This document shows, piece by piece, positions 6,195 through 58,868 of a stretch of 64,000 nt of DNA. How positions within the stretch are numbered: the first letter of the stretch is position 1; each line of letters opens with the position of its first letter. This DNA comes from an uncultured Acidobacteriota bacterium. Its GTDB lineage: Bacteria > Acidobacteriota > Vicinamibacteria > Vicinamibacterales > SCN-69-37. The stretch is taken from the NCBI GenBank assembly GCA_963764505.1, contig CAVXSP010000001.1, positions 3,316,614-3,380,613 of the forward strand. The letters are read 5' to 3'. A model generated the notes under the pieces. It was not told the origin of the DNA and ran no database searches. It saw only the letters and a program-made list of their open reading frames with translations. The translations under genes were made by a program, and so were the position numbers.

Positions 6195-6690
6195 TCAGTG
6201 TACTCGATTCGATCCGCGGCGGCCGCGACGCGACGCCGACCAGGACCCACGCAATCGCGGCACCCAGCGGCAGGGCGGCGGCCGCGCGCGTGAGATTCGA
6301 GACCGCGGCCAGACCGGTCCATTCGAGGACGAGCGACGCCACGGTCGGAATCGCCGCGACTGCGAACAGCCCGCGGGCCCGCGCCGCGGTGGCGACGAGG
6401 CTTGCGCGGCGCGAGCGCCGATACGCCAGGAGCGCGCCGAACGGCGCCGCCAGATACAGCCCGCTGCACCGGCCGCACACCGGCCACTTGACGCCGTTGG
6501 TGAAGAACGATCGATCCGGGCGCTGATGACAGACCGGAGCAGCGGCCGCGTAGAGCACGTCGGTCCAGCTCGGTGCGGCGGCGTGCCCCTGCCTCGCCCA
6601 GACGGCCGCGCCGAGAAGGACGGGCCAGACGCACGCGGCCGCGACGAGCACCCGGGGGAGGGCGGCGACCGCACCGGCCCGTTTGTTCAC
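6195..6690 (-). pseudogene. DUF2085-like membrane protein, frame broken by a 1-nt insertion near the 3' end (possibly an assembly artefact)
   Basis: Frame of ORF 5866..7662. GTG start 6690 in a GTGA overlap with the upstream stop. Motif PVCHQRPDRSFF...WPVCGRCSG. As sequenced it has no stop until 5866 and runs through the next gene. Deleting one base of GATTC 6206-6210 gives ...PPRIDRVH-TGA (6195-6197). Confidence 0.6.
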
Positions 6691-7655
6691 AGCCTGAGCT
6701 CTCCGAAGTGCCGCCGGTACCGGGCCTCGAACTCGTCCCAGCGATACGCGTGGTTCGACCCGCCCAGGTGCTCCAGCGCGTAGGCGGCGGCGACCGAGCC
6801 GAGGCGCGCGCACGTGACGTGCGACGCGCCGCAGGCCAGTCCCTTCATGAACCCGCCGCGGTACGCGTCCCCGACGCCGGTCGGATCGGCAATCCGGACG
6901 GGCTCGACCGCGGCGACGTCGACGCGCGCCATCGTGCGGTCGAGGACGGTCGATCCGTGCTCCCCGCGCGTGACGATCAGCAGCCCGGCGTGCTCGAGTA
7001 TCGACGACTCGTCGAGCCCGGTCTTCTGACGGATCAGTTCCAGCTCGTAATCGTTGCAGATCACGATGGCGGCGCCCACGATACCGTCGCGCAGCTCGTC
7101 TCCGGACATGCGCGCGCACTGCTGGCCGGGGTCGAAGATGTACCGGATGCCGAGCGTCCGGCATTCCTCCGCATACTGCGTCATCGCCGCCGGGTCGTTC
7201 GGCGAGATGATCGCGAGGTCGACGGGCCCGACCGTGCGGAACGACAGCTCCGCCGCGTGAGCCATCGCCCCGGTATAGAAGGAGGCGATCTGGTTGTTCG
7301 CTTCGTCGGTGCTGCAGAAGAACGAGGCGGTGAACTTCCCGGGCACTTGTTTCACGAGCGACGTATCGACACCGGCCGCGTCGAGCCATTGCCGGTACTC
7401 GTGGAAGTCCTGCCCCGCCGTGCCCATGAGCACGGGCCGTTCGCCGAGCAGCGCGAGCGTATATGCGATGTTCGGCGCGCAGCCGCCCCGCCGCTTGTCC
7501 ATCGAGTCCACCAGGAAGCTCAGGCTCACGCGGGAGAAGTGCTCCGGCAGGAAATGCTCGGTGAACCGGCCCGGAAAGGACATCAAGTAGTCGTAGGCGA
7601 TGGATCCGGTGACGATCAGGCGCATGGAACGGCTCATGTGACGTCGACGAAGCAT
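6687..7655 (-). CDS. PfkB-family carbohydrate/nucleoside kinase (adenosine-kinase-like)
   Basis: 322 aa. GGCAPNIAY...TGAM...DPTGVGDAYRGGF (PfkB signature). Follows MTA phosphorylase. Start uncertain (ATG 7655, 7637 or 7625). Confidence 0.75.
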   Translation of the reverse strand: MLRRRHMSRSMRLIVTGSIAYDYLMSFPGRFTEHFLPEHFSRVSLSFLVDSMDKRRGGCAPNIAYTLALLGERPVLMGTAGQDFHEYRQWLDAAGVDTSLVKQVPGKFTASFFCSTDEANNQIASFYTGAMAHAAELSFRTVGPVDLAIISPNDPAAMTQYAEECRTLGIRYIFDPGQQCARMSGDELRDGIVGAAIVICNDYELELIRQKTGLDESSILEHAGLLIVTRGEHGSTVLDRTMARVDVAAVEPVRIADPTGVGDAYRGGFMKGLACGASHVTCARLGSVAAAYALEHLGGSNHAYRWDEFEARYRRHFGELRL

Positions 7656-7677
7656 GCGGCACGGACGGGCGGCCGCG

Positions 7678-8541
7678 TCAGCTCACGTATTTCCCGATGA
7701 TCGGCGCCAGCCGCTCCCTGGTTCCGGCCGGAATCGCCTCCTTGGCGGTGACGATCGCCGACGCCAGAGCGCGCGCGCACTCGCACGTCCGCTCGATTGG
7801 CAGCCGGGCGACCGCGTTCGCGATCACCTCCTGCGCCGTCCGAGCGTTCCGCAGCAGGTTGGCGACGACCATGTCGACCGTCACGGAGTCGTGATCCGAG
7901 TGCCAGCAGTCGTAGTCGGTCACGAGGGCGATTGTGGCATAGCAGATCTCGGCCTCGCGGGCCAGCTTGGCTTCCTGCAGGTTCGTCATGCCGATGACGT
8001 CGAACCCGGCGGCGCGGTAGAAGTTCGACTCCGCGATGGTGGAGAACTGCGGCCCCTCCATGCAGACGTACGTGCCGCCGCGGTGGACGGTCGCGCCCGC
8101 CTGCGACGCCGCCGCGAACGCCGCGTCGCTCAGACCCGGGCAGAACGGATGGGCGAACGCGATGTGCGCGACGATCCCGTCGCCGAAGAACGTGCTCGCC
8201 CGGCCGCGCGTGCGATCGAAGAACTGCGAGGGAATCACCAGATCGAGCGGTTTGAAGTCCTCGCGCAGGCTGCCCACGGCGCTCGCCGACAGGATCCACT
8301 CGGCGCCGAGCAGCTTGAACCCGAAGATGTTCGCGCGGAAGTTCAGCTCGGACGGCGTGTGCCGGTGCCCGGCGCCGTGGCGCGCGAGGAACGCGACACG
8401 CCGGCCACGCAGCGTGGCCAGCACGTAGGGGCCCGAGGGATCGCCGAACGGCGTCTTCACGACGCACTCCTCGCGGTCCGCCAGTTCGGCCATGTCGTAC
8501 AGGCCGGACCCTCCGATGATGCCGATTTGGACGTTGGACAT
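7678..8541 (-). CDS. mtnP: S-methyl-5'-thioadenosine phosphorylase
   Basis: Start at [15 protein letters not shown]. ...[22 protein letters not shown]...[31 protein letters not shown] typical of MTAP. Confidence 0.85.
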
Positions 8542-8583
8542 GGACACGACGGATGGACCACCTCGACTCGGCAACGGCGCCGC

Positions 8584-11821: not shown

Positions 11822-11899
11822 CTCAGGACTGTAGCATTGCAGACGCGTTCACCGGCCTCGCCGGCCCGCGGCAGCGCCGGTTCTGCTTATACTGGCGGC

Positions 11900-12379: not shown

Positions 12380-12387
12380 ACGCGCCG

Positions 12388-12918: not shown

Positions 12919-12980
12919 ATGCAGGTCCTTCCAGGCCGGCGCACCGGCCGACCCGTCGCGGGCGGGATCCGGGGGCGGCG

Positions 12981-13025
12981 AGACAAACAGAAACGGGACG
13001 GTCCGCCCGCGCGGACGCGTCCCGT
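12981..13025 (-). terminator. Intrinsic-terminator-like hairpin plus T-tract downstream of paralog B
   Basis: Minus strand: ACGGGACgcGTCCGCgcggGCGGACcGTCCCGT followed by ttctgtttgtctc. Confidence 0.5.
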
Positions 13026-13049
13026 CGACGCGCACGCAGCCGAAAACGG

Positions 13050-13774: not shown

Positions 13775-14903
13775 CTACAAGAACGTGGCCAAGATTTCGT
13801 TCGCCACGAGCATGCCGCCCCGCGTCAGGCCGAAGCGGTCTGCATCGTTCCACAACAACCCGGCCTCGGCAAATCGACGCAGATCGTCCTCGTGACGACG
13901 CCATGGGTCCGTGCCGTAGGCGGCCTCGATTTCCGTCCGGCTGATGCCCGCCGACAGGCGGAGGCCCGTGAACAGCCGCTCTTCCAGACGCTGCTCCGGC
14001 GTCAGCGCGTGCTGCTCGATCCGAGGCGACAGGCCATCCGACACGCGGCTGACGTAGTCCTCGGTCGAGGAGACATTCTTCCACCGGATGCCATCGACGG
14101 TCGAGTGCGCGCCGCACCCGAAGCCATGCCAGCTGCCTCCCTGCCAGTACTTGAGGTTGTGCCGGCTGCAGTGTCCTGGCCGGGCGACATTGGAAATCTC
14201 GGTACTGGGCGAACCCTGCGACATCGAGCCGCTCCAGCGCGAGCAGGTACATGTCCGCCGCGAGGTCATCGGCCGCCTGCGGGTCGGTCGCGCCGCGCGC
14301 GAGCGCCTCTTTGAGCGGGGCGTTGGGGTACAGCTCCAGCAGATACATGGACAGGTGATCCGGCGCCAGATCGATCGCCTGGTCGACCGTCGCCAACCAG
14401 GACGCCACCGACTGGCCGGGCAGCCAGAACATCAGGTCGAGGCTGACGCCGTCGAACCCGGCCGCCTTCGCCTCGCGAACCGCGGCCGCGGCGCGCGCGG
14501 CCGTATGCACCCGTCCGAGGCGCGCGAGCTCGGCGTCGTCGAAGGACTGCACGCCGACGCTGAGGCGCGTCACGCCAGCGCGACGGAAGCCGTCCAGCCG
14601 CTCGCCCGTCAGCGTCTCCGGATTGGCCTCGAGCGTGACCTCCGCCGCGTGGTCCAGCGCGCAGGACTGTGCGCACGCCCCGACGAGGCGGGCCACATCA
14701 CCGGGCTCGAGCAGCGACGGCGTGCCGCCGCCGAAGAAGAGGCTGTCGGCCTCGACGCCGGCCGGCAGGCCGGCGCGAATCTCCCGCTCGAGAGCCTCGA
14801 CGTAGCGTCGTTTGAGACCCGGATCCAGCAGGCCGCGGTTGAAATTGCAGTACGCACAAATCGCCTGGCAGAACGGAATGTGCAGGTAGAGCCCGGATGG
14901 CAC
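13775..14903 (-). pseudogene. hemW: HemW/HemN-like radical SAM protein (heme chaperone family), frame broken by a 1-nt insertion (possibly an assembly artefact)
   Basis: N-terminal part in ORF 13725..14933 (LYLHIPFCQAICAYCNF CxxxCxxC, GGGTPS). C-terminal part in ORF 13775..14269 (EISNVARPGHCSRHNLKYWQGG). The junction reads CAGTAC-C-GAGATTTCC, and removing one C (plus 14201/14202) gives ...AGFAQYEISNVARPGH... . Start taken at GTG 14903. Confidence 0.8.
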
Positions 14904-17877: not shown

Positions 17878-19791
<1,914 letters not shown>

Positions 19792-19869: not shown

Positions 19870-20001
19870 GATGGAATCGATATTTCCCGGCCGTCTCGCC
19901 CTTACCACCGGTCACTCAGTCATTTGCTCGAAGCGTGGCGCTCCCATCGGGCGGCTGCTATCATGTGCCTCACGCGCTGCCTGCCGCTTCAAGGTCGCCG
20001 G

Positions 20002-21489
20002 ATGTTCTCCACCCGCGCGGGAGGCCTCCTCCTCCCCTGGCCTGCTTCGCCCATCCTTGCCGTGCTGCTGGCCTTATGGCTCGCGTCGGTTCTGCCGGTG
20101 CCCGCACTCGCGCAGGCGGCTGCCCCCAGCCAGACGGCGCCGGTTCACAGCTCGGTCAGCGATACGGTTGCCCCGGATCTGCCGCCGGCGCGCTTCTCGT
20201 CCATCCAGGGCCCCGTCGCGCTCGAGCGCGATGCGCGCGTGCTCGCGCCGGCGGTCGACATGCCGCTCCTGGCGGGCGACCGCGTCCGCACAGAGGCCGG
20301 CCGCGCCAGGATTCAGTTCGGCGCGGGCAGCTCGCTCGAACTGGCGCCGCACTCGGACGTCGACCTCCGCGGCGATGCGTTCGTCCAGCTCCTCGGCGGC
20401 GCACTGCAGATCGTGCTCGTCTCCAGGACCGCCTGCACCCAGCCGGACGTCTGGTGTCTTTCGTATCGCATCGATTCGGCGCCGGGCTCCGTCGTCCTGC
20501 ACGCCGCGGGCGAGTACCACATTGCGCTTCAGGTGGTGAGCGGCGAACCGCGCCTGGAGCTCTCGGTCGGCCAGGGCTCCGCCACGCTCCAGAACGGGCG
20601 CGGTACGGTGATCGTCGGCGCCGGCTCGCACGCCTGGACGACGGCCGACCTTCCCCCCGCGGCGCCGACCTCGAACGACACGATCGCGGCGGCAAGCGCC
20701 AGGCCGTGGCCCGGCGAGGACCGGACGGTGCGGCGCGACTCGACGCCCTCCGCTTCGCCGGTCCCGGCCGAGTTGGCCGATTACGGCAGCGAGCTCGACC
20801 GCGCGGGCGCCTGGCGCACGGACCCGACACTCGGCCGCGTCTGGTATCCGCGTGTCGGCGCAGACTGGGCCCCGTATTCGACCGGCGACTGGTCGTTCGT
20901 CGCCAGCTTCGGCTGGGTCTGGATTGGCGCCGAGCGATGGTCCTGGCCGACGCATCACTACGGGCGCTGGGGCATCGACGGGCGAGGCTGGTTCTGGATT
21001 CCCGGTTCGCACTGGGCGCCGGGCTGGGTCGCGTGGGCCTACGCGCCTGGCTACGTGAGCTGGTGTCCCCTCGGCGCGAACGACGAGGCGGTCGTCGCCC
21101 CGGGGAGCGCGCGGCACGGGGGTGGATGGTCGGGCGTTCCCGCGGAACGGTTCGCGCGGAACACCGTCAGCCTGCGGGCCGCCGTGGACCGGTCCCTTCC
21201 GCTCGGCGTCCCAAGAATCGCTCGTCGCCGGTCCGCCTCCCGGGCTCGCGCGCGGCGCCGCTCCGCTGTCGCTGCCGCTGCTCGGACCAGAATTCGGCCG
21301 ACCTGCGACGTCAGTGCCGCGGCCGCTGGAAGGCGGCCGCATCACGTCCCGCGTCGGCTCGTCCGGCGGACCTCCGGCGCCAGGAGCGAGCGTTCCGACG
21401 GCCGGCGCGGGAGTGCCGCGGTTTCCGCCCGTGCCGCCCGCGACGCTCTCGCCCACTCCCGTTCAGCGCAGCGGCCGATAGCGCGCTAG
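20002..21489 (+). CDS. Secreted FecR-domain / DUF6600-like protein
   Basis: Start at MFSTRAGGLLLPWPASPILAVLLALWLASVL. FecR-like GDRVRTEAGRARIQFGAGSSLEL. Trp-rich block YGRWGIDGRGWFWIPGSHWAPGWVAWAYAPGYVSWCPLG. The C-terminal ~90 aa are Arg-rich low complexity, so the frame there is uncertain. Confidence 0.55.
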   Translation: MFSTRAGGLLLPWPASPILAVLLALWLASVLPVPALAQAAAPSQTAPVHSSVSDTVAPDLPPARFSSIQGPVALERDARVLAPAVDMPLLAGDRVRTEAGRARIQFGAGSSLELAPHSDVDLRGDAFVQLLGGALQIVLVSRTACTQPDVWCLSYRIDSAPGSVVLHAAGEYHIALQVVSGEPRLELSVGQGSATLQNGRGTVIVGAGSHAWTTADLPPAAPTSNDTIAAASARPWPGEDRTVRRDSTPSASPVPAELADYGSELDRAGAWRTDPTLGRVWYPRVGADWAPYSTGDWSFVASFGWVWIGAERWSWPTHHYGRWGIDGRGWFWIPGSHWAPGWVAWAYAPGYVSWCPLGANDEAVVAPGSARHGGGWSGVPAERFARNTVSLRAAVDRSLPLGVPRIARRRSASRARARRRSAVAAAARTRIRPTCDVSAAAAGRRPHHVPRRLVRRTSGARSERSDGRRGSAAVSARAARDALAHSRSAQRPIAR

Positions 21490-23763: not shown

Positions 23764-24895
23764 CTAGTCTTCGTCCTCCGTCGCCGGCTCTCCCAGTTTC
23801 CCCAGCGCCTTCTGCATCAGGTACGCCTTGATGAAGTCGTCGAGGTCGCCGTCGAGCACACGGTTGACGTCGCCCACCTGGTGCCTCGTCCGGAGATCCT
23901 TCACCATCTGGTACGGCTGGAGGACATAACTCCGGATCTGGCTGCCGAAGGCGATCTGCTTCTTCTCCCCGCCGAGCTGATCGAGCCGCGCCTGCTGCTC
24001 CTTGAGACGGAGATCGTAGAGGCGCGCCTTGAGCACCTTCATCGCGGAGGAGCGGTTCTTGTGCTGCGAGCGCTCGTTCTGGCAGGAGACGACGATCCCG
24101 GTCGGCAGATGCGTGATCCGGATGGCGGAGTCGGTCACGTTCACGTGCTGGCCGCCGGCGCCGCTGGATCGGAACGTGTCGATGCGGATGTCCTTCTCGT
24201 CGATGTCGACGTCGATGTCTTCGGGAATCTCCGGCCACACGTACACGGAGGCGAAGGAGGTGTGGCGACGGGCCGCCTGGTCGAAGGGCGAGATGCGCAC
24301 GAGCCGGTGGATGCCGGCCTCCGCTGAGAGCAGACCGTAGGCGTAGTCGCCGACGACCGTGAAGGTCGCCCCCTTGATGCCGGCCTCGTCGCCTGGCTGC
24401 AGATCGATGATGTCGCGCTTGAATCCCCGCCGCTCGGTCCACCGCAGGTACATGCGCATGAGCATCTCGGCCCAGTCCTGCGACTCGGTGCCGCCGGCGC
24501 CGGGATGGATCGCCACGATCGCGTTCTTCCGATCCATCCCGCCCGACAGCATCGTCCGGATCTCGCCGTTCTCGATGTCGCGGGCGTACTGCTCGAGGCC
24601 GCGCGTCAGGTCCGCGCCGACGTCCTCGCCCTGGCGAGCCCAGTCGAACAGCACGCCGAGGTCGTCGGCCTGGCGCCTCAGCGCCTCGGCCAGCCCCTTG
24701 TCGTCTTCGATCCGGCGCCGGCGCTGCAGCACCTGCTGGGCGGCGCTCTGGTCCTTCCAGAACTCGGGAGCGGAGATGTGGGTTTCGAGGTCGTTCAGTT
24801 CGCGCTGCAGACGGGCCTCGTCAAAGGCCCCTCCGCAGATGCGCGGCGCGCTCGGACAGGTCGCCGTACCAGCGGACTTGCTCGTCGAGGGTCAT
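23764..24895 (-). CDS. prfB: Peptide chain release factor 2, expressed via programmed +1 frameshift
   Basis: ORF0 [27 protein letters not shown] (end of ORF 24821..25348). ORF1 continues +1 as [24 protein letters not shown]... into ORF 23764..24732 with the SPF and GGQ motifs. Confidence 0.9.
24820..24832 (-). promoter_or_regulatory. RF2 autoregulatory frameshift site (AGGGGC CTT TGA C)
   Basis: Minus strand: cggAGGGGCCTTTGACgag. Slippery CTT, in-frame TGA followed by C, and an SD-like AGGGG just upstream. Confidence 0.85.
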
Positions 24896-26454: not shown

Positions 26455-29428
26455 CTACGGCTCGCCTCGACCATTGACGGCATCCTCAGCGACAAGGACA
26501 AGCGTCTGGCTCCGACCGTCCACTTCGAGCGGCTGGGCGCGCAGGGTCAGGCGGCGCCTGGCGCCCTGCAGCTGCATCTCCAGATCGGCGCGCCCGGCCA
26601 CGCCTCTCGAGCCCTTCTCCAGCAGGTCGCGCACCTGTGGCGAATTCCACAAGGGGCCGATCTCATCGATCGGACGCCCCTCCATCTTCGCGGTCCCCGT
26701 GCCGAAGGCGCTGCGGAACGCCGAGCTGGCGCCGAGAACCCGCCGCTCGGAATCGAGCAGCAGCATCGGCTTCCCCACGAGTTCCGATAGCGCGTCGAAC
26801 GTCGCGCGAACCTGTTCGGAGGCCGTCCGCCACCGCACGCCCTCCATCCGCACCAGCGTCAGCACGGCACCGCTGAGCCGGTTGTCGACGGTCTTGTACG
26901 GACGGACCCGCAGGAGGTGCGGCCGTCCTTCCTTGTCGTTGACCTCGCGTTCCTGGGGCGTCAGGCTGTCGAGCGTCTCGTGAATCATCGGCTCGAGGTC
27001 GAGCCCGTCGAAGTTCGGGTTGATCTGCCCGATGCGGCGTCCGACGTCACCCGGAATGAGGTTGAACATGTTCTCGGCGCGCGGTGTGAACCGCCGGACC
27101 GTCAGGTCATTGTCGACGATGACGATTGGCAGATCGACGCTGGCGAGCAGGTTGACGAGAATCGCTGTTCACCTGCGTAAGCTCCTCGTTGCGCGAGTGG
27201 AGCTCCTCGTTGAGCGTGTTCAGCTCCTCGTTCATGCTCTGGAGCTCTTCCTTGGCGGTATCGAGCTCTTCGTTGGTGCTCTGCAGCTCCTCGTTGCTCG
27301 AGAGGATCTCCTCGTTTGCCGATTGCAGCTCCTCGTTGGAGGCCTCGAGCTCCTGGATGATCGACTGGAGGTACTCGCGGTTGGCGACCAGTTCGCGCCG
27401 CAGCTCGGTGACCTGGCCGGTCGGCTCGGCCGGCCTCGCACCCTTCCGGCGCCCCTTCCGCGCGCCCGGCTTGACGGCCGGCTCGAGGAACAGGATCAGG
27501 AAGTGGTCGCCTTGCCCGCTGGTGAGCGGGACGACCTCGATCTCGACCTCGCGCCAGCTCCCGTTGACCCGCACCTGCAGGTGCTCCCTGCGGGCCGCGC
27601 GCCGGCGACGCCGCGCGGCCTCCAGCGCGGTCTGCAGAGGATGCAGCAGTCCGGTGCGCGCCATCTTCAGGACGTTGAGGTTCGGCTCGCCGGCGGCGGC
27701 CTCGAGGTAGGGCCCCGTACGTCCGCGGAACTGAACGATGTGCAGGTTGCCATCGACGACCACGCCGGCCGGCGCATACCGATCCAGCAGGAGCCGGTTC
27801 ACGTCGTCGATCATCGATTTCGGCGAGCCGGGCTGTGGTCCGGCGCCGGCCCTCCGCTCGTGAGCCGCGTCGCTGGCCATCGGCGGGCCCGATGTCATCG
27901 GCAGCCGCACGTCGACCGGAACCTTCCGGAAGATCCGCCCCCTCTTGTCGGCGGGCGTGAACAGCCCCTGCGAGCCCGTGGTCTCCGCCGATCCCAGCAT
28001 GAGGAACCCCTGGGTCCGCAGCGCGTAGTGAAAGACGGTCATGAGCCGCTGCTGCAGCGGCACGTCGAGGTAGATCAGCACGTTGCGGCAGACGATCAGG
28101 TCCAGCCGCGAGAAGGGGGGGTCACGTGTGAGATCGTGACGGGCGAACACGCACATGTCCCGAATCGCCTTCGCCACGCGATATCCGCTGTCGGTCTTGC
28201 TGAAGAAGCGCTTCAGGCGTTCGGGACTGACGTCGGCAGTGATGCTCCACGGAAACACGCCGAGGCGCGCGTGCTCGATGCTCGACTCGCTGACGTCGGT
28301 GGCGAAGATCTGGACCCGCCGCTCGGGCGCGCGGTCGCCCAGGACCTCGTACAGACAGATCGCAACGCTGTAGGCCTCCTCTCCAGTCGCGCAGCCGGGG
28401 ACCCACACGCGGATGTCGCTGTCCTGCCGCGACTGCGTGATCGTGGGAAACACGATGGACTGCAGACCGGCGAACGATTCCGCGTCGCGAAAGAACCGCG
28501 TCACGTGAATCAAGAGGTCCTGCCCGAGCGTGGTGGCCTCGTTCGGATGCTCGGTCAGGTAGGCCACGTACGCCCCGACGTCCACCAGCCGCAGCACCGC
28601 CATCCGACGCAGCAGCCGCCGCTTGATCGTCGGCAGCTTGTAATGTCGGAAGTCGATGCCGCTCGTCCGGCGGAGGATCGCGAAGATTTCGCGCAGCTGC
28701 GCGTCGGGAACGTGCGCGTCGGCCCCTTCGTCCGGATCCGCGCTGGGCGGCGCGAGATACGGATGCGACCGCACCTGGGCGATCTGTTCGGCGATCTCTT
28801 CGGGCGACAGCACCAGATCCACCAGGCCCGTCTTGATGGCTGCGCGCGGCATGCCGTCGTACTTCGCCGTTTCGGGCGATTGGGCGATGGTGATCCCGCC
28901 CTGCGCCTTGATCTCCCGGATGCCCGCAGCGCCATCCGATCCGGTGCCCGACAGGATGACGCCGATGGCCCGCCCACGTGCCCACTGCGCGAGCGAGGTG
29001 AACAAAGTGTCGATGGCCAGGGGCGGCACCGGGCGCCGGGCATCCGCCCTCAGGTGGATGCAGCCCTCTCTCACCTCCGCAGCCATGTGCGGAGGGATGA
29101 CGTAGAGCACGTTCGGCTCGATCCGCGTCCCGTTCGTCGGGTCCACGACCTTCAACGGCGTCTTCGCCGCGAGCAGGTCCGGCAGAGTGCTCTCCTGGGC
29201 CGGCCGATGCTGCACGAACAGCAGCGCCACGTTCGGGGACTTCGGTAACCGGTCGAGCAACCGGAGAAACGCCTCGAGCCCGCCCGCCGACGCGCCGACG
29301 GCGACAATCGTGGCGTGGACCGGCGACTCTGCGGTCTGGGATCTCGTGGCCTGTCGCGCTGCGGGCGTGGATCGGCGCGTGCTCGTTGAGCGTGCGGGCC
29401 CCGACGAAGAACTGCGCTTCCGCGCCAT
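26455..29428 (-). pseudogene. CheB methylesterase - CheR methyltransferase - PAS/coiled-coil fusion signalling protein, frame broken by a 1-nt insertion (possibly an assembly artefact)
   Basis: ORF 27107..29428 carries a CheB-like domain (VGASAGGLEAF...GVILSGTGSDGAAG), a CheR-like domain (RVWVPGCATGEEAYS...LIVCRNVLIYLD) and heptad repeats NEELQS.... ORF 26455..27069 continues the family-typical ...FNLIPGDVGRRIGQI... PAS region. Removing one base of GAATC 27159-27163 joins them (...QVNSD|LVNLLASVDLPIVIVDNDLTVRRFTPRAENMFNL...) into 990 aa. Confidence 0.8.
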
Positions 29429-37808: not shown

Positions 37809-39107
37809 TCAGGCCGGGTCTCCGGCGTGGTCTGCCGCGAACAGCGCGACCACCTCGACGTGCGGCGTGTTGGGGAACAGATCGAACGCCTCGATCGAGC
37901 GCAGTTCGTAGCCAGCGGCGACGAGCTTCAGCCCGTCTCTTGCGAGCGTCGGCGGGTCGCACGAGACGTACACGATTCGAGGCGCACCCGCGGCCGCGAG
38001 GTGCGCCATCGCCGCAGGAGAGACGCCCGCCCGCGGCGGATCGAGCACGATGACGTCCGACCGCGGCCACTCGCCTCGACCGCCGAAGGCTTCGACCGCG
38101 AGCGACGCGACCTGGAGACGCGCGCCGTGAGCCTTCGCATTGAGCCGCAGATCCGCGACGCTGACCGGATCGCTCTCGACGGCGACGACGCGGCTGCCGT
38201 GGGCGGCGAGGGCCACCGCGAACAGGCCGACGCCCGCGTAGAGGTCGAGACACCGCTCTCCCTCCCCGACCTCCAGGACGCGCCGCACGAGCGCACCCAG
38301 AAGGAACCGGTTGCCCTGAAAGAACGATCCGGCCTGACGCCTCCACGTGACCGCCGGATCGATTGGCGGGCTGCCGCCGAACACGTCCGCGGCGGTATCG
38401 CTGACGCGGGCGCTTCCATCGACGACGACGGTCCGCAGCCCTTCGGCGCGCGTGACGCCCGTCACGCGCGGCAGCCGATCGACGCTGAGACGCAGCCCAT
38501 GGAGACGTCCGGACACACGCGGCACGACGTGCAGCACGCGCTCGGTGGCCTCGACGTTCTCCGCGATGAGGATCTCGTCGACGTCCGCCAGCCGCGCGCC
38601 GAGACCGGCGGCGAGCGCGTCGGCCGCCGGCATCGCGTCCGGGTGCAGCTGCCCCGTCGGTCCGGGGTCGCACACGACGTGGGACGCCTCGCGGAAGAAC
38701 CCGATCCGCCGGCCGCGAACGTGCAGGCGCGCGCGGAGCCGGTACCCCGACTCGGCCGAGGCCCGGACCACCGGCGCCTGCGGCAGCTCGATCCGGCCGA
38801 TGCGACGGAAGGCATCCACGATGACGTCCGCCTTGAGCTGGAGCTGGCGCGGATAGCGGATGTGCGCGTAGTGCGCGCCGCCGCACGCGGGATCGCATGC
38901 GTGGGGGCGGCGGTCCTCACTCGGCTCGATCACCTCGACGGTGTCCGCCCACGCCATGCTGCGCGTCGCGCGCTCCAGCCGCGCCAGCACCCGCTCGCCC
39001 GGCACGGCCCCGGACACGAGGACGACGCGGCCGTCGTGGCGGGCCAGCATCCGCCCGCCGGCCACCGGCCGCTCAATCACCAGATCGAGGAGAGAAGGCT
39101 TTTCCAC
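37809..39107 (-). CDS. TrmA/RlmD-family RNA (uracil-5-)-methyltransferase with N-terminal TRAM-like domain
   Basis: ORF 37809..39167. TRAM-like LDLVIERPVAGGRMLARHDGRVVLVSGAVPGERV. SAM-binding LDLYAGVGLFAVALA and VLDPPRAG, C-terminal FDLFPNTPHVE. Start is GTG 39107 (inside the palindromic repeat) or GTG 39080. Confidence 0.75.
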   Translation of the reverse strand: MEKPSLLDLVIERPVAGGRMLARHDGRVVLVSGAVPGERVLARLERATRSMAWADTVEVIEPSEDRRPHACDPACGGAHYAHIRYPRQLQLKADVIVDAFRRIGRIELPQAPVVRASAESGYRLRARLHVRGRRIGFFREASHVVCDPGPTGQLHPDAMPAADALAAGLGARLADVDEILIAENVEATERVLHVVPRVSGRLHGLRLSVDRLPRVTGVTRAEGLRTVVVDGSARVSDTAADVFGGSPPIDPAVTWRRQAGSFFQGNRFLLGALVRRVLEVGEGERCLDLYAGVGLFAVALAAHGSRVVAVESDPVSVADLRLNAKAHGARLQVASLAVEAFGGRGEWPRSDVIVLDPPRAGVSPAAMAHLAAAGAPRIVYVSCDPPTLARDGLKLVAAGYELRSIEAFDLFPNTPHVEVVALFAADHAGDPA

Positions 39108-39196
39108 AGGAGGGGGACGGGTCTCGATTTGTGGAAAACTCGGCCCCCAGGACCGAGTTTTCCACAAATCGAGACCCGTCCCCCTCCTGTGGAAAA
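39100..39196. repeat. Perfect 44-bp inverted repeat with 9-nt spacer (two inverted copies of the 39-nt TTTTCCACA...TGTGGAAAA element)
   Basis: Arm 39100-39143 ttttccacaggagggggacgggtctcgatttgtggaaaactcgg. Spacer cccccagga. Arm 39153-39196 is its exact reverse complement (checked base by base). Confidence 0.95.
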
Positions 39197-39853
39197 CTAC
39201 CCGACGTCCAGGGTCGGGAGCCCGTAGAGGTCCCTGACGAAGCGATCGAGCGTGACGTCGATGGCGCGGCGCCAGGCGTCCTCGTCCAGGCGATCCCGAA
39301 AGGCGGCGAGATCCGTCGAGGCCGCCTTCGAGAGCGTGTCCATCGCCGGAGCGTCTGTCGCGGCACGGGCCGCGAGGAGCAGCCGCCCGTCCAGCGCCTG
39401 CAACTGCGCGGTCACCTCGCCGCGCGCGGGCCCGCGCGCCTTCGCCGCGACCTCCCGCAGCGCGGCCAGCTCCTCCAGCACTCCATCGATCGTCCGCAGG
39501 AACGGTTCCGGCAGGTCGAGCCGACCGGCCACGCGGCCCAGCCGGTCGATTGCGCGATCGATCCGCTTGACCGGCGACGGCGCGCGCCGGGACGCGGCGG
39601 GCTCGTCCGGCGGCTCATCGGCCGGACCCGTCCGCGGCACGCCCACCGCGCGCCGCCAGCTCTCGTAGATCTCCCGGACGTCGCTTTCGCAGAACTCGAT
39701 CCGGAGCGGCCGACGCGCGCGGCCGAGCCGATGCCGCTCGGCCTTGACCTCGATGCCGCGGAAGACGATCGTCAGCGGGACGCCGGCCTCCGCCCACGAG
39801 CGCACGAGCTCGAAGCCGGCGCCCACGATGCGCACCAGGTGCCCGCCGTTCAC
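39197..39853 (-). CDS. Hypothetical protein (218 aa)
   Basis: GTG start 13 codons after the birA stop in the same frame. Pro-rich centre, helical C-terminal half. No recognisable motif. Confidence 0.5.
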   Translation of the reverse strand: MNGGHLVRIVGAGFELVRSWAEAGVPLTIVFRGIEVKAERHRLGRARRPLRIEFCESDVREIYESWRRAVGVPRTGPADEPPDEPAASRRAPSPVKRIDRAIDRLGRVAGRLDLPEPFLRTIDGVLEELAALREVAAKARGPARGEVTAQLQALDGRLLLAARAATDAPAMDTLSKAASTDLAAFRDRLDEDAWRRAIDVTLDRFVRDLYGLPTLDVG

Positions 39854-39892
39854 GCGCGTCAGATGGTCCTCGACCTCGCGGCAGGACCTGGC

Positions 39893-40700
39893 TCAGATCG
39901 ACGGCTCCCACGCGACCTCACCCGCTATCACCCGGTCGAGCCGACCCTCGCGGTCGACGAGCAGCGCCCCGTCCGCATCGATCCCGCGAGCGGTTCCCCG
40001 GCAGTCGCCCCGCTGATCCCGCCAGTGCACGGCTCGGCCCTCGAGGTTGGACTGCCCGAACTGCCGCCATTCCCGCAGGAGGGCGTCGGCGCCTTCCTCA
40101 CGCAGCCGTCGAACGCGCTCCAGCAGGCGCGCGAGGCACTCGGCCACGAGGGGCCCCCGCTCGATTCGGGCGGCCGAGCTCGACCTCGATCGACGTCGCC
40201 ACGCCGGCGAGCTCGGCGGGGTACGCCGCAGATCGCAGATTGACTCCGATGCCGACGACGACGGCGTCCGGCTGGGTTCCGATACCCGTCGATTCGCAGA
40301 GAATCCCGGCCAGCTTCCGCCACGGCCTGCCGATCACGAGATCGTTCGGCCACTTGAGACCGACCGGCAGCCCTGTCACCGCGACCACGGCCTCCGCCGT
40401 GGCCACACCGGCGGCGAGGCTGACGAGCGGCAGCGCCGCGCCCCTGCCGCCGCGCACGACGCACGACAGATAGAGCCCCGCGCCAGGCGGCGAGAACCAG
40501 ATCCGCCCGCGGCGTCCGCGGCCGGCGCGCTGGACGTCGGCCAGCACGGCCGTGCCTTCGGGAGCCCCCGTCTCCGCGAGCCGCAGCGCAATGTCGTTGG
40601 TCGACGACACTTCGGGAAAGTAGCGCAGGCTCGCGTGCGCCAGCCCGCCCGGCGCGGCGTCGAGGGCCTCGGCGAGGTCGGCGGGGAGAGGAAATGTCAT
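39893..40700 (-). pseudogene. birA: Biotin--[acetyl-CoA-carboxylase] ligase, frame broken by a 1-nt insertion (possibly an assembly artefact)
   Basis: N-terminal part in ORF 40098..41060 (MTFPLP...VQRAGRGRRGRIWFSPPGAGLY...GLKWPNDL). C-terminal part is ORF 39893..40147 (...ARGIDADGALLVDREGRLDRVIAGEV). Removing one base of GATTC 40163-40167 gives ...VELGRP|IERGPLVAECLARLL..., 268 aa. Confidence 0.85.
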
Positions 40701-52136: not shown

Positions 52137-52141
52137 CGGGT

Positions 52142-53290: not shown

Positions 53291-53350
53291 ATTTCATCAC
53301 GAAGTGGACGAACTCGAGAGCACCCCGGACGTGCTCCAGCGATCGGACGC

Positions 53351-53845
53351 TCAGGGCACGACGATCTCCGCAAAGGCGGACCGAATCCGCGACCCGGTCT
53401 GCGTCAGCTCCTCCGGGAGCACGCGCGTCTCCCCGACGATGCTCATGAAGTTGGTGTCGCCGTTCCAGCGAGGCACCACGTGCATGTGGAGATGATCGAG
53501 CACGCCGGCGCCGGCGGGCTTGCCGAGATTCAATCCCATGTTGAAGCCGTGCGGATCGTAGGCGAGCGTGAGGACGCGTTCGGCGGCCTGCGTGAGCTGC
53601 CCGAACTCGGCGAGCTCGTCCTGGCCGAGATTGACGAGCCGGCCGACGTGCCGGTTGGGCACGATCATCAGATGACCGTTGTTGTACGGGAACTTGTTCA
53701 GGATGACGAAGCAGGTGCGGCCGCGGTGCACGATCAGCGGCTCGGTGTCCATCCGCGCCAGCGCGTCACAGAAGATGCAGCCACCCACGCCCTTGCTGGC
53801 TCCGATCACATAGGACAGACGCCAGGGCGTCCAGAGGCGGTCCAC
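53351..53845 (-). CDS. HIT-family nucleotide hydrolase/transferase
   Basis: 164 aa. CIFCD...FPYNNGHLMIVP...VLDHLHMHVVPR (histidine triad). GTG start. Confidence 0.8.
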   Translation of the reverse strand: MDRLWTPWRLSYVIGASKGVGGCIFCDALARMDTEPLIVHRGRTCFVILNKFPYNNGHLMIVPNRHVGRLVNLGQDELAEFGQLTQAAERVLTLAYDPHGFNMGLNLGKPAGAGVLDHLHMHVVPRWNGDTNFMSIVGETRVLPEELTQTGSRIRSAFAEIVVP

Positions 53846-53849
53846 GGAT

Positions 53850-54170
53850 TCACAACGAGGCGATGGGGTCGCCGTCGGCCCCGGCCTCCTCGATCGCCCT
53901 GTTGATCAGGTCCTTCAGCTCCTTGCCCGGCTTGAAGTACGGCACCTTCTTGGGCGGCACGTCGACCTTGTCCCCCGTCTTCGGATTCCGGCCCTTGCGC
54001 GGCTCGCGCTGACGGAGCCGGAAGCTGCCGAACCCCCGCAACTCGATCTTCTCGCCCCGATGCAGCGCGTCCACGATGCTCTTGAAGACGGTGTCGACGA
54101 TGACCTCCGAGTCCTTCTTGGTGAGGTCGGAGACCCGCGAGACTTCCTCTACGAGTTCGGCTTTGGTCAT
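53850..54170 (-). CDS. HU/IHF-family DNA-binding protein (integration host factor-like)
   Basis: Start MTKAELVEEVSRVSDLTKKDSEVIVDTVF...GFGSFRLRQREPRKGRNPKTGDKVDVP. 106 aa. Confidence 0.85.
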   Translation of the reverse strand: MTKAELVEEVSRVSDLTKKDSEVIVDTVFKSIVDALHRGEKIELRGFGSFRLRQREPRKGRNPKTGDKVDVPPKKVPYFKPGKELKDLINRAIEEAGADGDPIASL

Positions 54171-54183
54171 AGACGAGGGCTGC

Positions 54184-54270
54184 GGGCTCTGGACGCTGGG
54201 CTCTGGGCTCTGGGCTTCGGGCGACATCGAAGCCCAGAGCCCAGAGCCCAGAGCCCGAAGCCCAGAGCCC
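54184..54270. repeat. Hairpin built from inverted arrays of 7-nt tandem repeats (GGGCTCT / AGAGCCC); core 22-bp perfect stem
   Basis: 54198-54219 gggctctgggctctgggcttcg pairs perfectly with 54228-54249 cgaagcccagagcccagagccc (8-nt loop). Extra repeat units lie on both flanks. Located between the rpsA stop and the IHF start. Confidence 0.85.
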
Positions 54271-54271
54271 T

Positions 54272-56026
54272 TTACTTCAGATGCTTGAAGTGATCCCCCA
54301 GCGTCACCTCCGGGCGGCCGGACGATTCGGTGTAGGCCTCCCAGTCGGCCCGGTACTCCTGATCCTTCAGGGCGCGAATGCTGAGCCCGATCTTCCGCTC
54401 CTCGGGCACCAGCCGGATGATCTTCATCTGATAGGTCTCTCCGGTCCGGAGCTCGAGCTTCTCGCCGCCCTGCGAGGAGTCGAACTCCGAGACGTGGATC
54501 AGCCCCTCGATGCCGTCGGCCAGCTCGACGAACGCGCCGAAGTTGGTCAACCGGACCACCTTGCCCTCGACGATGTCGCCGACGTGGTGCGCGTCGAAGA
54601 ACTCCTTCCAGATCCCGGTCTGCAGCTGCTTCAGGCCGAGCGACAGCCGCTGGTTCTCGGCGTCGATGCTGAGCACCTGCGCTTCGACGACGTCCCCCTT
54701 CTTGAGCACCTCCGAGGGGTGCTTCACCTTGCTCCAGGACATGTCGGAGATGTGGATGAGGCCGTCGATGCCCTCCTCCACCTCCACGAACGCGCCGAAC
54801 TCGGTCAGGTTCCGGACCTTGCCGGTGATCGTGCTGCCGACGGGGTACTTGTCCGCCAGCTCGTGCCAGGGGTTCGTCTCGACCTGCTTCAGGCCCAGGG
54901 AGATGCGGCGTGCGCCCGGGTCGACGCCGAGCACCATCGCCTCGACGGCGTCGCCCTGGTTGAGGATCTTCGACGGGTGCTTCACCCGCTTGCTCCACGA
55001 CATCTCGGAGACGTGGATGAGCCCTTCGACGCCCGGCTCGAGCTCGATGAACGCGCCGTAGTCGGTGAGGCTGACGACCTTGCCGGACACGCGCATGCCC
55101 ACCGGATAGCGCTCGATGACGGCGTTCCACGGATCGGCGACGATCTGCTTGTGTCCGAGCGAGACGCGTTCGGTGGCCGGATCGTACTTGAGGACGATCA
55201 CGTCGAGCTCGTCGCCGACCTTGACGACCTCCGACGGATGCGTCACGCGGCCCCAGGACATGTCCGTGATGTGCAGCAGCCCGTCGATGCCGCCCAGGTC
55301 GATGAACGCCCCGTAGTCGGTGAGATTCTTGACGGTGCCGCGCAGCACCTTCCCCTCCGACAGCGTGTCGAGCGTGATCTTCTTCTTCTCGGCATTCTCC
55401 TCTTCGAGCAGGACCTTGCGCGAGAGCACGATGTTGCCGCGCTTCTTGTTGACCTTGATGACGCGCATGCGCAGCTCCTGGCCCTTCAGGGCGTCGAGGT
55501 TGCGCACGGGGCGGACGTCGATCTGCGATCCCGGCAGGAACGCCCGGACGCCGATATCCACCGCCAGCCCGCCTTTGATCCGCTCGATGACGCGGCCGAT
55601 GACGACCTTCCGTTCCTGGTAGGCCTTCTCGACCTCGTCCCAGATCTTCATCTTCTCGGCCTTCTCGCGGGAGAGGACGACGTATCCCTCGCGATCCTCG
55701 GTGCGCTCGAGCAGCACGTCGACGCTGTCGCCAGGCTGCGCCATCACCTGGCCGCTCTCGTCGAGGAACTCCTCGATCGGGATGAGGCCTTCCGACTTGA
55801 AACCGACATCGACAATGACCTCGGTCGGCGTGACTTTGACGACCGTGCCCTTGACGACTTCGCCTTCCGCGATGTTGCGGAAGCTGGTATCGTAAAAGTC
55901 CGCCAGGCGCGCGTATTCCTGCGGATCCATCTCTTCGCCGTCGCGGGAGGAGGAGAATGTTGAAAAGCCCTTCAGGGTCTTCGTGCCTCCTTGTCGAAGC
56001 TGGGTTCTCTTTGACTCATCTGTCAT
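54272..56026 (-). CDS. rpsA: 30S ribosomal protein S1
   Basis: ORF 54272..56047 with six S1 (OB-fold) repeats (…VVKGTVVKVT…, …VIGRVIERIKGGLAVDIG…, etc.). Start ATG 56026 (MTDESK), or internal ATG 55930. Confidence 0.9.
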   Translation of the reverse strand: MTDESKRTQLRQGGTKTLKGFSTFSSSRDGEEMDPQEYARLADFYDTSFRNIAEGEVVKGTVVKVTPTEVIVDVGFKSEGLIPIEEFLDESGQVMAQPGDSVDVLLERTEDREGYVVLSREKAEKMKIWDEVEKAYQERKVVIGRVIERIKGGLAVDIGVRAFLPGSQIDVRPVRNLDALKGQELRMRVIKVNKKRGNIVLSRKVLLEEENAEKKKITLDTLSEGKVLRGTVKNLTDYGAFIDLGGIDGLLHITDMSWGRVTHPSEVVKVGDELDVIVLKYDPATERVSLGHKQIVADPWNAVIERYPVGMRVSGKVVSLTDYGAFIELEPGVEGLIHVSEMSWSKRVKHPSKILNQGDAVEAMVLGVDPGARRISLGLKQVETNPWHELADKYPVGSTITGKVRNLTEFGAFVEVEEGIDGLIHISDMSWSKVKHPSEVLKKGDVVEAQVLSIDAENQRLSLGLKQLQTGIWKEFFDAHHVGDIVEGKVVRLTNFGAFVELADGIEGLIHVSEFDSSQGGEKLELRTGETYQMKIIRLVPEERKIGLSIRALKDQEYRADWEAYTESSGRPEVTLGDHFKHLK

Positions 56027-56122
56027 CGCGTTCAAGGGCCTCCTCACGCACGAGCGTGCTGCGCCGGGTCGAAGCGCCGGCGCGCGCTAGATTCGCTTCG
56101 CAACGGGTGCGATAAGCATTTT

Positions 56123-56151
56123 ATTATCCGGTACTTACGACCCCCGGTCAA
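56123..56151 (-). promoter_or_regulatory. Candidate sigma70-type promoter for rpsA (TTGACC-N17-GATAAT)
   Basis: Minus strand: gTTGACCgggggtcgtaagtaccgGATAATaaaatg, in an AT-rich patch about 90 nt upstream of the rpsA start. Confidence 0.45.
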
Positions 56152-56174
56152 CCAACGCGGCAAGGAGGACGGTG

Positions 56175-56858: not shown

Positions 56859-56916
56859 ACGAGGGAGGGCAATCGGGCCCAGGTATCGGAAGGGACGACC
56901 GATTGCCCACACTCCA

Positions 56917-57603
56917 TTACCCGTTGCCGATGACCCGCCGCCCCGCCACCTTGTCCTCCACGATCCCGATGACGCGCGCGACGACCTGCTCGATGGTGAG
57001 CTCCGTCGTATCGATGTAGACCGCGTCGGCGGCGCGCGTCAGCGGCGAGACGGCGCGCGTGCGATCGGCGCGGTCGCGCGCGTCGAGCGCCTCCGCGACG
57101 GCGGCCGGCGCGTCGCGCGCCGCGGCGTGGGCCGGATCGCGCGCACGGCGTCGGGCGCGCTCCGCCGGCGAGGCATCGAGAAACACCTTCACATCGGCGT
57201 CCGGAAAGACCACCGTCCCGATGTCCCGGCCCTCCATGACGACCGAGGCAGCCGCGCCGTAGCGGCGCTGCCGCGCAACGAGCACCGTCCGGACGGCCGG
57301 ATGGCGCGCGACGATCGCCGCGGCAGCGTCGATGGCCGGCGTTCGGATCGCCTGCGTGACGTCCTCGCCGTCGATCCGGATGCGCCCGTCGATCTCGAAC
57401 ACCGCCTGTTCGGCGATGCGCGCCACGCGCTCCGCGTCAGCCAGGTCGACCGACTGCTGCTGCGCTTTCCAAGCGACCGCTCGATACATCGCGCCGGTGT
57501 CCACGTGCGGAATACGGAGCCTGGCCGCGACCGTGCGCGCCACGGTGCCCTTCCCCGCGCCGGAGGGGCCGTCGATGGCGATGATGAGCGGAGGCGACGT
57601 CAT
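56917..57603 (-). CDS. cmk: Cytidylate kinase
   Basis: Start MTSPPLIIAIDGPSGAGKGTVAR. ...DTGAMYRAV...VMEGRDIGTVVFPDADVKVFL... . Confidence 0.85.
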   Translation of the reverse strand: MTSPPLIIAIDGPSGAGKGTVARTVAARLRIPHVDTGAMYRAVAWKAQQQSVDLADAERVARIAEQAVFEIDGRIRIDGEDVTQAIRTPAIDAAAAIVARHPAVRTVLVARQRRYGAAASVVMEGRDIGTVVFPDADVKVFLDASPAERARRRARDPAHAAARDAPAAVAEALDARDRADRTRAVSPLTRAADAVYIDTTELTIEQVVARVIGIVEDKVAGRRVIGNG

Positions 57604-57718
57604 GGCCTTCCCATTCTTGATCGGCTCCGGTGGAGACGGACCCGCCAGCCCGGGCGCCGACACGTCGTATTCCGGAGTTGTGAACGGGGAAGCCCGGGCC
57701 TATGATGCGACCCGACGC

Positions 57719-58868
57719 ATGTCGCGCCGCCATGCACTGGCTGCCCTGCCGATCCTGCTCCTCGCGGTTGGCGTCTGGCTCGCACAGCCCTACTTCAGAG
57801 CCGCCGCGCTGGTGCTCGATCTCACCGGCTCGACATCCTGGATCAGGCATCTGCTGCCGGTCGACGTGCGCCGCGTGGAGGCGCACGACCTCCAGGTCCC
57901 GACGCGCGATGGCCCGGTCGGCGCGCGCGTGTACAGGCCCGACGGCGGCGGCGCACGCACGGTCCTCGTATTCCCGGGCGTCCACGCGGGCGGTCTCGAC
58001 GAGCCGCGGCTCGACCGATTCGCACGACGCCTGGCGGCCACCGGACTGACGGTCGTCAGCGTCCCGTTGCCCGAACTGCGGCGATACCGGATCACGCCCG
58101 CCTCGACGGACATGATCGAGGACGCCGCCGGGTGGGTCGCCGCCGACGAGGCGCTCGCCCCGACGGGCCGGGTCACTCTCGCCGGCGTCAGCTTCGCGGG
58201 CGGACTGGCCGTCGTCGCGGCCGGCCGCCCGAGCCTGCGCGACAGAGTGGAGAGCGTCGTCGCGATCGGGGCGCACGCCGATCTGCCACAGGTCATGACC
58301 TATCTCTGTACCGGCCGGCTCCCGGACGGCGGAACGCTGCGCCCCCACGAGTACGGCATCGCCCTGATTCTGCTCGGCGCGCTGCCGGATTCTGGTGCCG
58401 GCCGGCGAGCTCGCACCCGCCCGCGCCGCCGTGCTTGCGTACCTCGACGCGTCGAGCCAGGAGAGCATCGACGTCGAACAGGCCGCGGCGATGCTGGCCG
58501 CGTCGCGGCGGAAGGCGGCCGAGGCGCCGGAGCCGGCGCGCGCGCTGCTCGCGCTCCTGTACGACCGCGATGTCGAGCGGCTCGGCGCCCGGCTCTTGCC
58601 GTACGTCGAACGACTGGGCGGCGCGCCCGCCCTCTCCCCCGTCCGGTCGCCCGCGCCGCTCGTTCCTGTGTTCCTGGTTCACGGCGAGACCGACAATGTC
58701 GTTCCGTCCTCGCAGACGCCTCGGCTCGCGGAGTACCTTCGATCCCGCGGAAACGGCCACGTCCACTGGCTGCTCACGCCGCTCCTCTCCCACGCCGACG
58801 TGCGAAGGCCCGCGACGATCGAGGCCTGGCGCGTGATCAGGTTCTGGCAGGAGCTGCTCGGTTCCTGA
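57719..58868 (+). pseudogene. Alpha/beta-hydrolase-fold protein (dienelactone-hydrolase-like), frame broken by a 1-nt insertion (possibly an assembly artefact)
   Basis: Hand-translated N-terminal part from ATG 57719: MSRRHALAALPILLLAVGVWLA...TVLVFPGVHAGG...VTLAGVSFAGGLAVVAA... . C-terminal part is ORF 58395..58868 (...VFLVHGETDNVVP...LLSHADV). Removing one T of GATTC 58388-58392 gives ...LGALPD|LVPAGELAPARAAVLAYLD..., 382 aa. Confidence 0.7.

Follow-up and report, generated by a model that had tools for sequence, protein, structure and literature searches.

Why do so many conserved genes in one stretch of a bacterial genome change reading frame at the same few letters? The window considered here, the whole 64-kb stretch of DNA (64,000 nucleotides) that was analysed from a soil Vicinamibacterales (Acidobacteriota) genome, carries single-base lesions in or beside GATC and GTAC, for which a preliminary description had left two readings, a systematic consensus error or a motif-targeted mutational process. 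Our comparisons favor the former: the extra bases are very probably long-read consensus errors at GATC and GTAC and not mutations in the organism. A targeted mutational process fits poorly with a sister assembly that reads plain GATC at four of the sites and has insertions of its own elsewhere.

Sequences compared

The second public assembly is ENA ERZ25039539 (contig_16475), from a strain 99.6-99.9% identical to the window; its stretches are labelled L081, L082 and L084, with L086 also compared at the CheB/CheR gene. Two short contigs of run ERR11718635, L083 and the Logan contig L087, add a total of 7 kb. The majority of the relatives found, the closest included, were Microflora Danica long-read MAGs, which are Nanopore-only and were assembled with metaFlye and one round of Medaka 1.8.0 (PMC12313526). 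Based upon the 3.9-Mb size of its contig, the Flye-style contig names in the sister assembly ERZ25039539 and the error signature itself, we infer that the window derives from nanopore reads as well, and the long-read assembly behind the extra bases is probably Nanopore-only. Frame changes were located with a codon-position GC model that takes no homology input. An Rfam scan of the 64-kb window returned 0 hits.

Lesions in the window and their repair

The lesions touch seven genes (DUF2085, DUF6600, CheB/CheR, birA, alpha/beta hydrolase, hemW and TamB) and one intergenic site.

Table 1. Positions of the lesions in the window, with the genes affected.
Lesion	Position	Gene, strand and extent	Effect
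GATTC, extra T in GATC	6206..6210	DUF2085 gene, minus, 6690 down to restored TGA 6198-6200	stop removed
GGTAC (minus-strand GTAC followed by C), extra C/G	14200..14205	hemW, minus, 14933 down to 13775	gene split
GAATC, extra A in GATC	21215..21219	DUF6600 gene C-terminal tail, plus, 19924-21489	
GAATC, extra A in GATC	27159..27163	CheB/CheR/PAS gene, minus, 29428 down to 26455	gene split
GGACC vs GGTACC in other assembly	39884..39888	intergenic	
GATTC, extra base in GATC	40163..40167	birA, minus, 40721 down to 39893	gene split
GATTC, extra T in GATC	58388..58392	alpha/beta-hydrolase gene, plus, 57719-58868	gene split
TCAGGACCCG (minus-strand CGG GTC CTG A)	58915..58924	TamB, minus, start 63079	stop codon lost

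Every GATTC or GAATC pentamer in the preliminary description was found at its place, and, as claimed there, four genes shift frame exactly at such a pentamer while hemW shifts at an extra C adjoining GTAC. All five of these lesions are +1 insertions. The frame scan detects same-strand frame changes without a stop codon at 27161/2 (CheB/CheR), 40164/5 (birA) and 58389/90 (hydrolase), and deletion of the middle base regains full-length proteins whose Pfam domains cross the junctions: CheB_methylest, CheR and PAS_10; BPL_LplA_LipB and BPL_C; DUF2085; alpha/beta hydrolase; and, for hemW, Radical_SAM and HemN_C. The repaired ORFs contain full domains and are free of secondary stops or other decay. 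The placement at GATC is clearly non-random, the probability of at least four out of five lesions falling on the A or T of GATC being 7e-7 under a single-base-duplication model; with all window lesions counted, 5/8 are located at GATC (P ~1.5e-7). Only about 1% of GATC sites carry a lesion. Each window lesion doubles a single A, T or C, and none lies in a homopolymer. Two 9-mers recur among the error sites, CTCGATTCG and AGAATCGCT, each twice, and intact AGATCGCT is seen once only in the window. A motif longer than GATC was considered and rejected after the flanks were checked, since the CGATC/GATCG context present at 4/5 error sites is shared by 70% of all GATC and is therefore not distinctive.

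The consequences differ among genes. In DUF2085, the frame does change at GATTC as first described, but the gene is not split, because the lesion lies just 4 codons ahead of the stop and thus lengthens the ORF; orthologues terminate 3-20 residues beyond the last transmembrane helix, and in the second assembly (L081), position 6208 falls in an unaltered GATC and the gene encodes an intact protein of 164 aa. Repair of the CheB/CheR gene regains ...NSDLVNLL... within PAS_10, with GATC at 27160 in both L082 and L086, which encode an intact protein of 990 aa, and the in-frame length also retained there in L087. The repaired hydrolase has 382 aa, with plain GATC at 58390 in L084. The gene initially labelled FecR-like is in fact DUF6600, and its frame signal ends at 21211/2. 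Its tail is of low complexity, so that homology and codon statistics leave the correct version undecidable, as had been anticipated; in the second assembly, L081 reads plain GATC at 21216.

The birA and hemW lesions are common to both assemblies and are consequently placed by homology only. In birA, which L082 likewise presents as split (207 + 84 aa), an alignment of 20 sequences, which exhibits no length variation, confines the extra base to the GAA in CCGAATCGAG, after the invariant ELGR and before R188. In hemW, the join reads TAC, C, GAG, with the additional C lying between the Y (TAC) and E (GAG) of a conserved QYEISN; the motif [QH]Y[EQ]ISN is present without gaps in 52/53 orthologues. 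The protein database held no intact near-identical copy of either gene, the best intact matches being 73% identical for birA and 72% for hemW. An apparent hemW frameshift in one relative (L001) proved to be a split BLAST match and not a frameshift. The preliminary description had also named hemW as the only other clear frameshift in the window. The hemW lesion itself is confirmed, but a sixth frame change, unrelated to GATC, is present in prfB (RF2), where the natural programmed +1 frameshift occurs at CTT TGA C near ~24826.

At the TamB tail, a GAATC at 58906-58910 had been put forward as a possible additional lesion. This candidate was discarded as a sixth GATC lesion: its repair yields no sensible C-terminus, and all homologues inspected (20/20) terminate 10 nt upstream of it. 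The lost stop lies instead at exactly 58915-58924, where the TamB protein ends in ...DLI[FY]x[IV][RS]Y* in 20/20 homologues inspected and where a TGA is found out of frame at 58915-58917. Judging by this alignment, TCAGGACCCG is probably a garbled CGG TAC TGA, that is, GTAC with one extra base that costs TamB its stop. The lesion is present in both assemblies; they differ at position 58920 (A vs T). At the intergenic site, the T of GTAC has probably been lost from the window; lying 7 nt beyond the birA stop, its correct version is undecidable by reading frame. GTAC thus behaves like GATC, as had been suggested, given hemW, the TamB stop and 39886 in the window together with three sites in the other assembly.

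Differences between assemblies

Four of the five GATC lesions of the window are absent from the second assembly, which has plain GATC at 6208, 21216, 27160 and 58390; those of birA (40165), hemW (14201) and the TamB stop are retained. The second assembly in turn carries +1 insertions of its own, consisting of a C after GTAC at 5865 and 58354, an A after GTAC at 60254 and a C after CATG at 18485, all at sites where the window is intact. These disrupt DUF6677, the hydrolase, TamB and dnaK, respectively. With two strain-divergent stretches excluded, 10/10 indel differences between the assemblies are in or beside GATC, GTAC or CATG, motifs that span 7.2% of possible insertion positions (P ~4e-12). 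It is evident that GATC and GTAC are error hot-spots in this Vicinamibacterales population, and CATG is perhaps another. Because the two assemblies carry the same lesions in birA, hemW and TamB, the comparison is equally compatible with systematic error and shared mutation at these three sites.

The short contigs of ERR11718635 differ from the window at four places only in 7 kb (34127, 34454, 26586 and 27158-60), all of them at GATC and all G>A or C>T. Exact-protein look-ups for further contigs of this run over 6208, 14201, 40165 and 58390 returned none, or the ENA contig only.

In a homology-free frame scan of relatives, the density of frameshift candidates per 100 kb was 7.5 for 22 other nanopore MAG loci (465 kb) and 1.0 for 44 other MAG loci, compared with 6.2 for the window. 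The nanopore loci contain roughly 175 GATC per 21 kb, and 0/35 of their candidates have a GAWTC within 15 nt, which indicates that the GATC error is specific to the organism of the window and is not generic to the pipeline.

Discussion

How a palindrome might acquire an extra base can be envisaged as follows. GATC and GTAC are probably modified in the DNA, most likely by methylation, and the pore signal would therefore be ambiguous at these sites. GATC would then be miscalled as G>A and C>T, and in some 9-mer contexts the polisher may keep both alternatives, turning G into 'GA' (GAATC) or C into 'TC' (GATTC); GTAC would similarly gain an extra C to become GTACC. As each such event adds one base, the gene is either broken or lengthened. 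To regard these lesions as an insertion form of methylation-linked nanopore error is an extrapolation. The 62 kb of gene tables from the window and the fetched second-assembly stretches contained no DNA methyltransferase genes, either Dam-like or directed at GTAC.

Consensus error could also arise from context only, if the basecaller or polisher mishandles certain GATC/GTAC 9-mers irrespective of modification. The error sites include two pairs with the same 9-mer, and the great majority of GATC sites are spared, both of which would be expected in this case. However, a generic k-mer bias should recur in other nanopore loci, where GAWTC accompanied none of the candidates; the motifs hit are palindromes of 4 bp, as type II methyltransferases typically target; and the G>A and C>T miscalls that accompany the lesions at GATC match the signature published for modification. 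On balance, we consider a context-only origin improbable. Noise from the collapse of a strain mixture into one consensus, independent of motif, is scarcely credible. In its favor, the stretches 35989-37678 and 53400-55910, which are 2-3% divergent, hold 15 indel differences mostly away from the motifs, but the GATC/GTAC lesions sit where the assemblies are otherwise identical and where every indel falls at a motif.

The remaining alternative is that the +1 insertions are real products of motif-targeted mutation, for example through faulty repair of nicks in methylated palindromes, and that the genes are true pseudogenes. Three lesions, in birA, hemW and TamB, are common to two independently assembled strains, with no intact near-identical copy found elsewhere, which speaks for this reading. 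Yet the sister strain lacks most of the GATC lesions, and its different lesions in dnaK, argS and rpsA cannot all be real. It is likewise implausible that 7 of ~55 genes should be broken, and the rpsA differences comprise 38 synonymous vs 8 non-synonymous changes. Genuine pseudogenes should bear their lesion in all assemblies of the lineage together with further decay, whereas here several lesions are confined to one assembly and the broken genes are otherwise undecayed. Furthermore, birA is normally essential, and finding it broken counts toward an artefact. We therefore regard real insertions as very unlikely. The same holds, with equally little probability, for a narrower version in which only the shared lesions (birA GATTC, hemW GTACC and the TamB stop) are real and the lineage gains +1 insertions at methylated palindromes, conceivably because nicks at GATC or GTAC are processed with errors, and either tolerates the damage to these genes or recodes them.

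If the extra bases are consensus errors, as we favor, their value is practical, concerning quality control and not new biology. Roughly eight single-base errors suffice to leave ~1/8 of the genes in this 64-kb stretch mis-annotated as split, truncated or extended, and users of this MAG would mistake birA, hemW, TamB and the CheB/CheR fusion of chemotaxis for pseudogenes. An inexpensive error test that needs the sequence only also follows from the pattern: an error is marked wherever two ORFs are joined by repairing a pentamer of the form GAWTC or GTACC. In addition, the pattern is an indirect hint that GATC and GTAC are modified in this Vicinamibacterales lineage.

When compared with known systems, the lesions resemble prfB in that a +1 frame change occurs inside a gene. 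In prfB, however, a canonical slippery/stop site is preceded by a Shine-Dalgarno-like GGAGGGG, whereas both elements are missing at the GAWTC sites and the orthologous ORFs are uninterrupted; 19 birA homologues and 53 hemW orthologues run straight through the junction, with no sign of a programmed frameshift. A second parallel is provided by nanopore homopolymer-length indels, which fragment gene calls through frameshift (PMC9262707). Both types are single-base indels that break gene calls in long-read MAGs, and the frameshift rate is indeed raised in nanopore MAG loci. Homopolymer errors, however, concern runs of 3 or more (Wick et al., PMC6591954), whereas the lesions of the window lie outside homopolymers and always inside or beside GATC/GTAC; it is a single base that becomes two, and no run of at least three changes its length. 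A third parallel is with modification-induced nanopore errors. Such errors have been described at the Dcm motif CCWGG (Wick et al. 2019, PMC6591954), and with R10.4.1 they consist of C2T and G2A changes, with GATC as the dominant motif and accuracy falling at its G and C (PMC11610603); methylation-linked errors also affect only some occurrences of a motif (PMC12392509). The window shares with them a short organism-specific palindrome, the involvement of a subset of copies, and G>A/C>T at GATC. The difference is that the cited papers stress substitutions, whereas here the modification is deduced and the changes are single-base insertions (GATC to GAWTC, GTAC to GTACC). The class of artefact is thus already described for nanopore data, and the insertion form adds a small detail to it.

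Results

The window has a G+C content of 69.8% and contains 617 GATC, 54 GATTC, 55 GAATC and 149 GTAC motifs. GATC is ~3.5x as frequent as the ~178 copies expected from base composition, its commonest flank combination being CGATCG (112 copies). The preliminary description had placed frame breaks in unrelated genes at GATTC or GAATC pentamers, all of which are indeed found where they were quoted. Segmentation of the window by a codon-position GC model, which takes no homology input, revealed same-strand frame changes lacking a stop codon at 27161/2, 40164/5 and 58389/90 as well as a loss of frame at 21211/2, and removal of the middle base from each pentamer yielded full-length proteins with Pfam domains across the junction. 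The lesions of the DUF2085, CheB/CheR, birA, hydrolase and hemW genes are +1 insertions without exception. Of the eight lesions that the window holds altogether, GATC accounts for five and GTAC, already suspected earlier, for the other three. It is evident that the motif-linked frame breaks are real in the sequence and far beyond chance. The gene at 19924-21489, previously termed FecR-like, matches DUF6600 in Pfam (E 5.6e-28) and not FecR.

Lesions and other features of the window and of contig_16475 (ENA ERZ25039539)
Assembly	Feature	Position	Sequence	Repaired product or consequence
window	DUF2085 gene	6206-6210	GATTC	DUF2085
window	hemW	14201/14202		Radical_SAM + HemN_C (one base deleted at 14201)
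window	CheB/CheR gene	27159-27163	GAATC	990 aa; CheB_methylest + CheR_N + CheR + PAS_10 + PAS_4
window	birA	40163-40167	GATTC	BPL_LplA_LipB + BPL_C
window	alpha/beta-hydrolase gene	58388-58392	GATTC	alpha/beta hydrolase
contig_16475	DUF6677	5865	GTAC, extra C	broken
contig_16475	dnaK	18485	CATG, extra C	shortened to 550 aa
contig_16475	hydrolase	58354	GTAC, extra C	broken
contig_16475	TamB	60254	GTAC, extra A	broken
both		39886	window GGACC, contig_16475 GGTACC	
both	strain-divergent stretches	35989-37678; 53400-55910		
window	prfB (RF2), minus strand	24816-24895		programmed +1 frameshift
both	inverted repeat	39100-39196		
window	single-arm copy of inverted repeat	3690-3729		

Related loci identify the organism as a Vicinamibacterales (Acidobacteriota) bacterium, many of whose closest relatives are Microflora Danica MAGs. 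Through an exact-protein look-up, we retrieved a second assembly, ENA ERZ25039539 contig_16475 (1.28 Mb), which is 99.6-99.9% identical to window positions 673-62125. It has plain GATC at window positions 6208, 21216, 27160 and 58390, and its gene calls for DUF2085 (164 aa) and CheB/CheR (990 aa) are the proteins that had been predicted beforehand by repair. The lesions of birA (40165) and hemW (14201) are common to both assemblies. Errors private to contig_16475 also occur; its DUF6677 looks like arginine-rich junk, whereas the window version resembles a sensible membrane protein, and the window dnaK product (637 aa) covers HSP70 model positions 1-598 of 599. Leaving out the two strain-divergent stretches, each of the 10 indel differences falls within or next to one of the motifs GATC, GTAC and CATG, which constitute 7.2% of possible insertion positions (P ~4e-12). 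Substitution differences are likewise enriched at the motifs (5/35 within GATC, 4/35 in or beside GTAC). Single-base substitutions on GATC or on or beside GTAC occur at 16884, 19086, 19768, 36155, 43748, 53840 and 61147 and also at 18175, 25333, 41936 and 60162 (for example, AATC vs GATC or GACC vs GATC), and part of the motif substitutions may be hidden window miscalls that alter amino acids but leave the frame intact.

The window and contig_16475 come from different strains, with 38 of the 46 rpsA substitutions in the rpsA/HU stretch being synonymous third-position changes. The divergent stretches differ by ~1-3%, with third-position G<->C changes prevailing, mostly synonymous in rpsA/HU and about half so in argS, a pattern that speaks for genuine divergence of the strains, or for recombination. 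Here contig_16475 exhibits 15 indel differences from the window and its argS and rpsA are broken; the window retains intact copies of both, with an argS product of 669 aa and an rpsA product of 591 aa that has six S1 domains.

For the shared lesions of birA, hemW and TamB, the protein database contained no near-identical intact copy, and the case for artefact is built upon three points: which motif is hit, that birA is essential, and that the genes show no other decay. Among 20 BirA sequences, ELGR and R188 are invariant with a constant three-residue spacing, and the family P-[IVMT]-[ED] is regained only if CCGAATCGAG loses the G or either of the two A's. Ungapped hemW orthologues carry [QH]Y[EQ]ISN in 52/53 cases, which places the extra base between TAC and GAG, i.e. 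a C after GTAC. TamB homologues end in ...DLI[FY]x[IV][RS]Y* (20/20 inspected), whereas the window reads ...DLIYVVRV followed by 79 further residues, with an out-of-frame TGA exactly at the stop position of the homologues; the assemblies differ at 58920. The simplest true sequence would be CGG TAC TGA, leaving GTAC plus an extra base in the window. Based upon these features, the TamB tail is probably a GTAC-type lesion, and the GAATC at 58906-58910, previously considered a candidate, is not responsible.

Two further features were encountered. The short prfB ORF runs from 24895 to the TGA of GGAGGGGCCTTTGACG (CTT TGA C, ~24826), and +1 reading continues into the PCRF/RF-1 ORF (23764-24732); this natural frame change is real and unconnected with GATC. 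The inverted repeat is a perfect 47-bp palindrome around a 3-nt loop, folding as RNA at -97.7 kcal/mol (z -15); it is identical in both assemblies and intergenic, downstream of a 218-aa ORF (39197-39853) that comes after birA. Its single-arm copy has GATC in place of the GATT/AATC of the palindrome arms. The repeat matches no Rfam family and is possibly a REP/MITE-like element.

Discussion

The frame breaks are almost certainly a property of the assembly and not of the bacterium. The evidence supports the first of the two readings originally offered, in which a modified motif gives rise to systematic errors in the consensus; we infer that GATC and GTAC are modified in this organism and that the window was sequenced by nanopore. 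A homology-free frame scan of the related loci and the window gave 7.5 frameshift candidates per 100 kb in Microflora Danica nanopore MAG loci (n=22), 1.0 in other MAG loci (n=44) and 6.2 in the window. A tblastn-based scan concurs (23/24 candidates in nanopore MAG loci). Microflora Danica MAGs are Nanopore-only metaFlye assemblies with one round of Medaka 1.8.0 polishing (PMC12313526). A generic k-mer bias behind the GATC/GTAC errors should recur in these genomes, yet the homology-free scan found GATTC or GAATC within 15 nt of 0/35 candidates in other nanopore loci. The better fit is therefore a cause peculiar to this organism, for which DNA modification is a candidate. In other nanopore MAGs (Microflora Danica loci L013, L027, L031 and L033), candidates gather in other contexts, CTGCAG occurring in 4/23 junction windows and L013 and L031 showing TCGA-rich surroundings, which hints that each organism has its own error-prone, possibly modified, motifs. 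The ~62 kb covered by gene tables include no DNA methyltransferase gene.

Presumably, GAATC would arise when the G of GATC is called as "GA" and GATTC when its C is called as "TC". The contexts CTCGATTCG and AGAATCGCT each occur twice and the intact form AGATCGCT only once; errors at the motif depend on context, and elsewhere only a subset of a motif's copies is affected (PMC12392509). Evidence for an origin in the read chemistry comes from two short contigs of run ERR11718635, which match the strain of the window. At the CheB/CheR site, L087 (1.9 kb) reads GACGGAATCGCT, equal in in-frame length to the GACGAGATCGCT of contig_16475, and it has a C>T within another GATC; L083 (5.1 kb) shows just two base differences from the window, a G>A at the G of a GATC and a C>T at the C of a GATC. 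Published R10.4.1 errors are C2T and G2A with GATC as the dominant motif and accuracy falling at its G and C (PMC11610603), and the GATC differences of the ERR11718635 contigs follow this same pattern.
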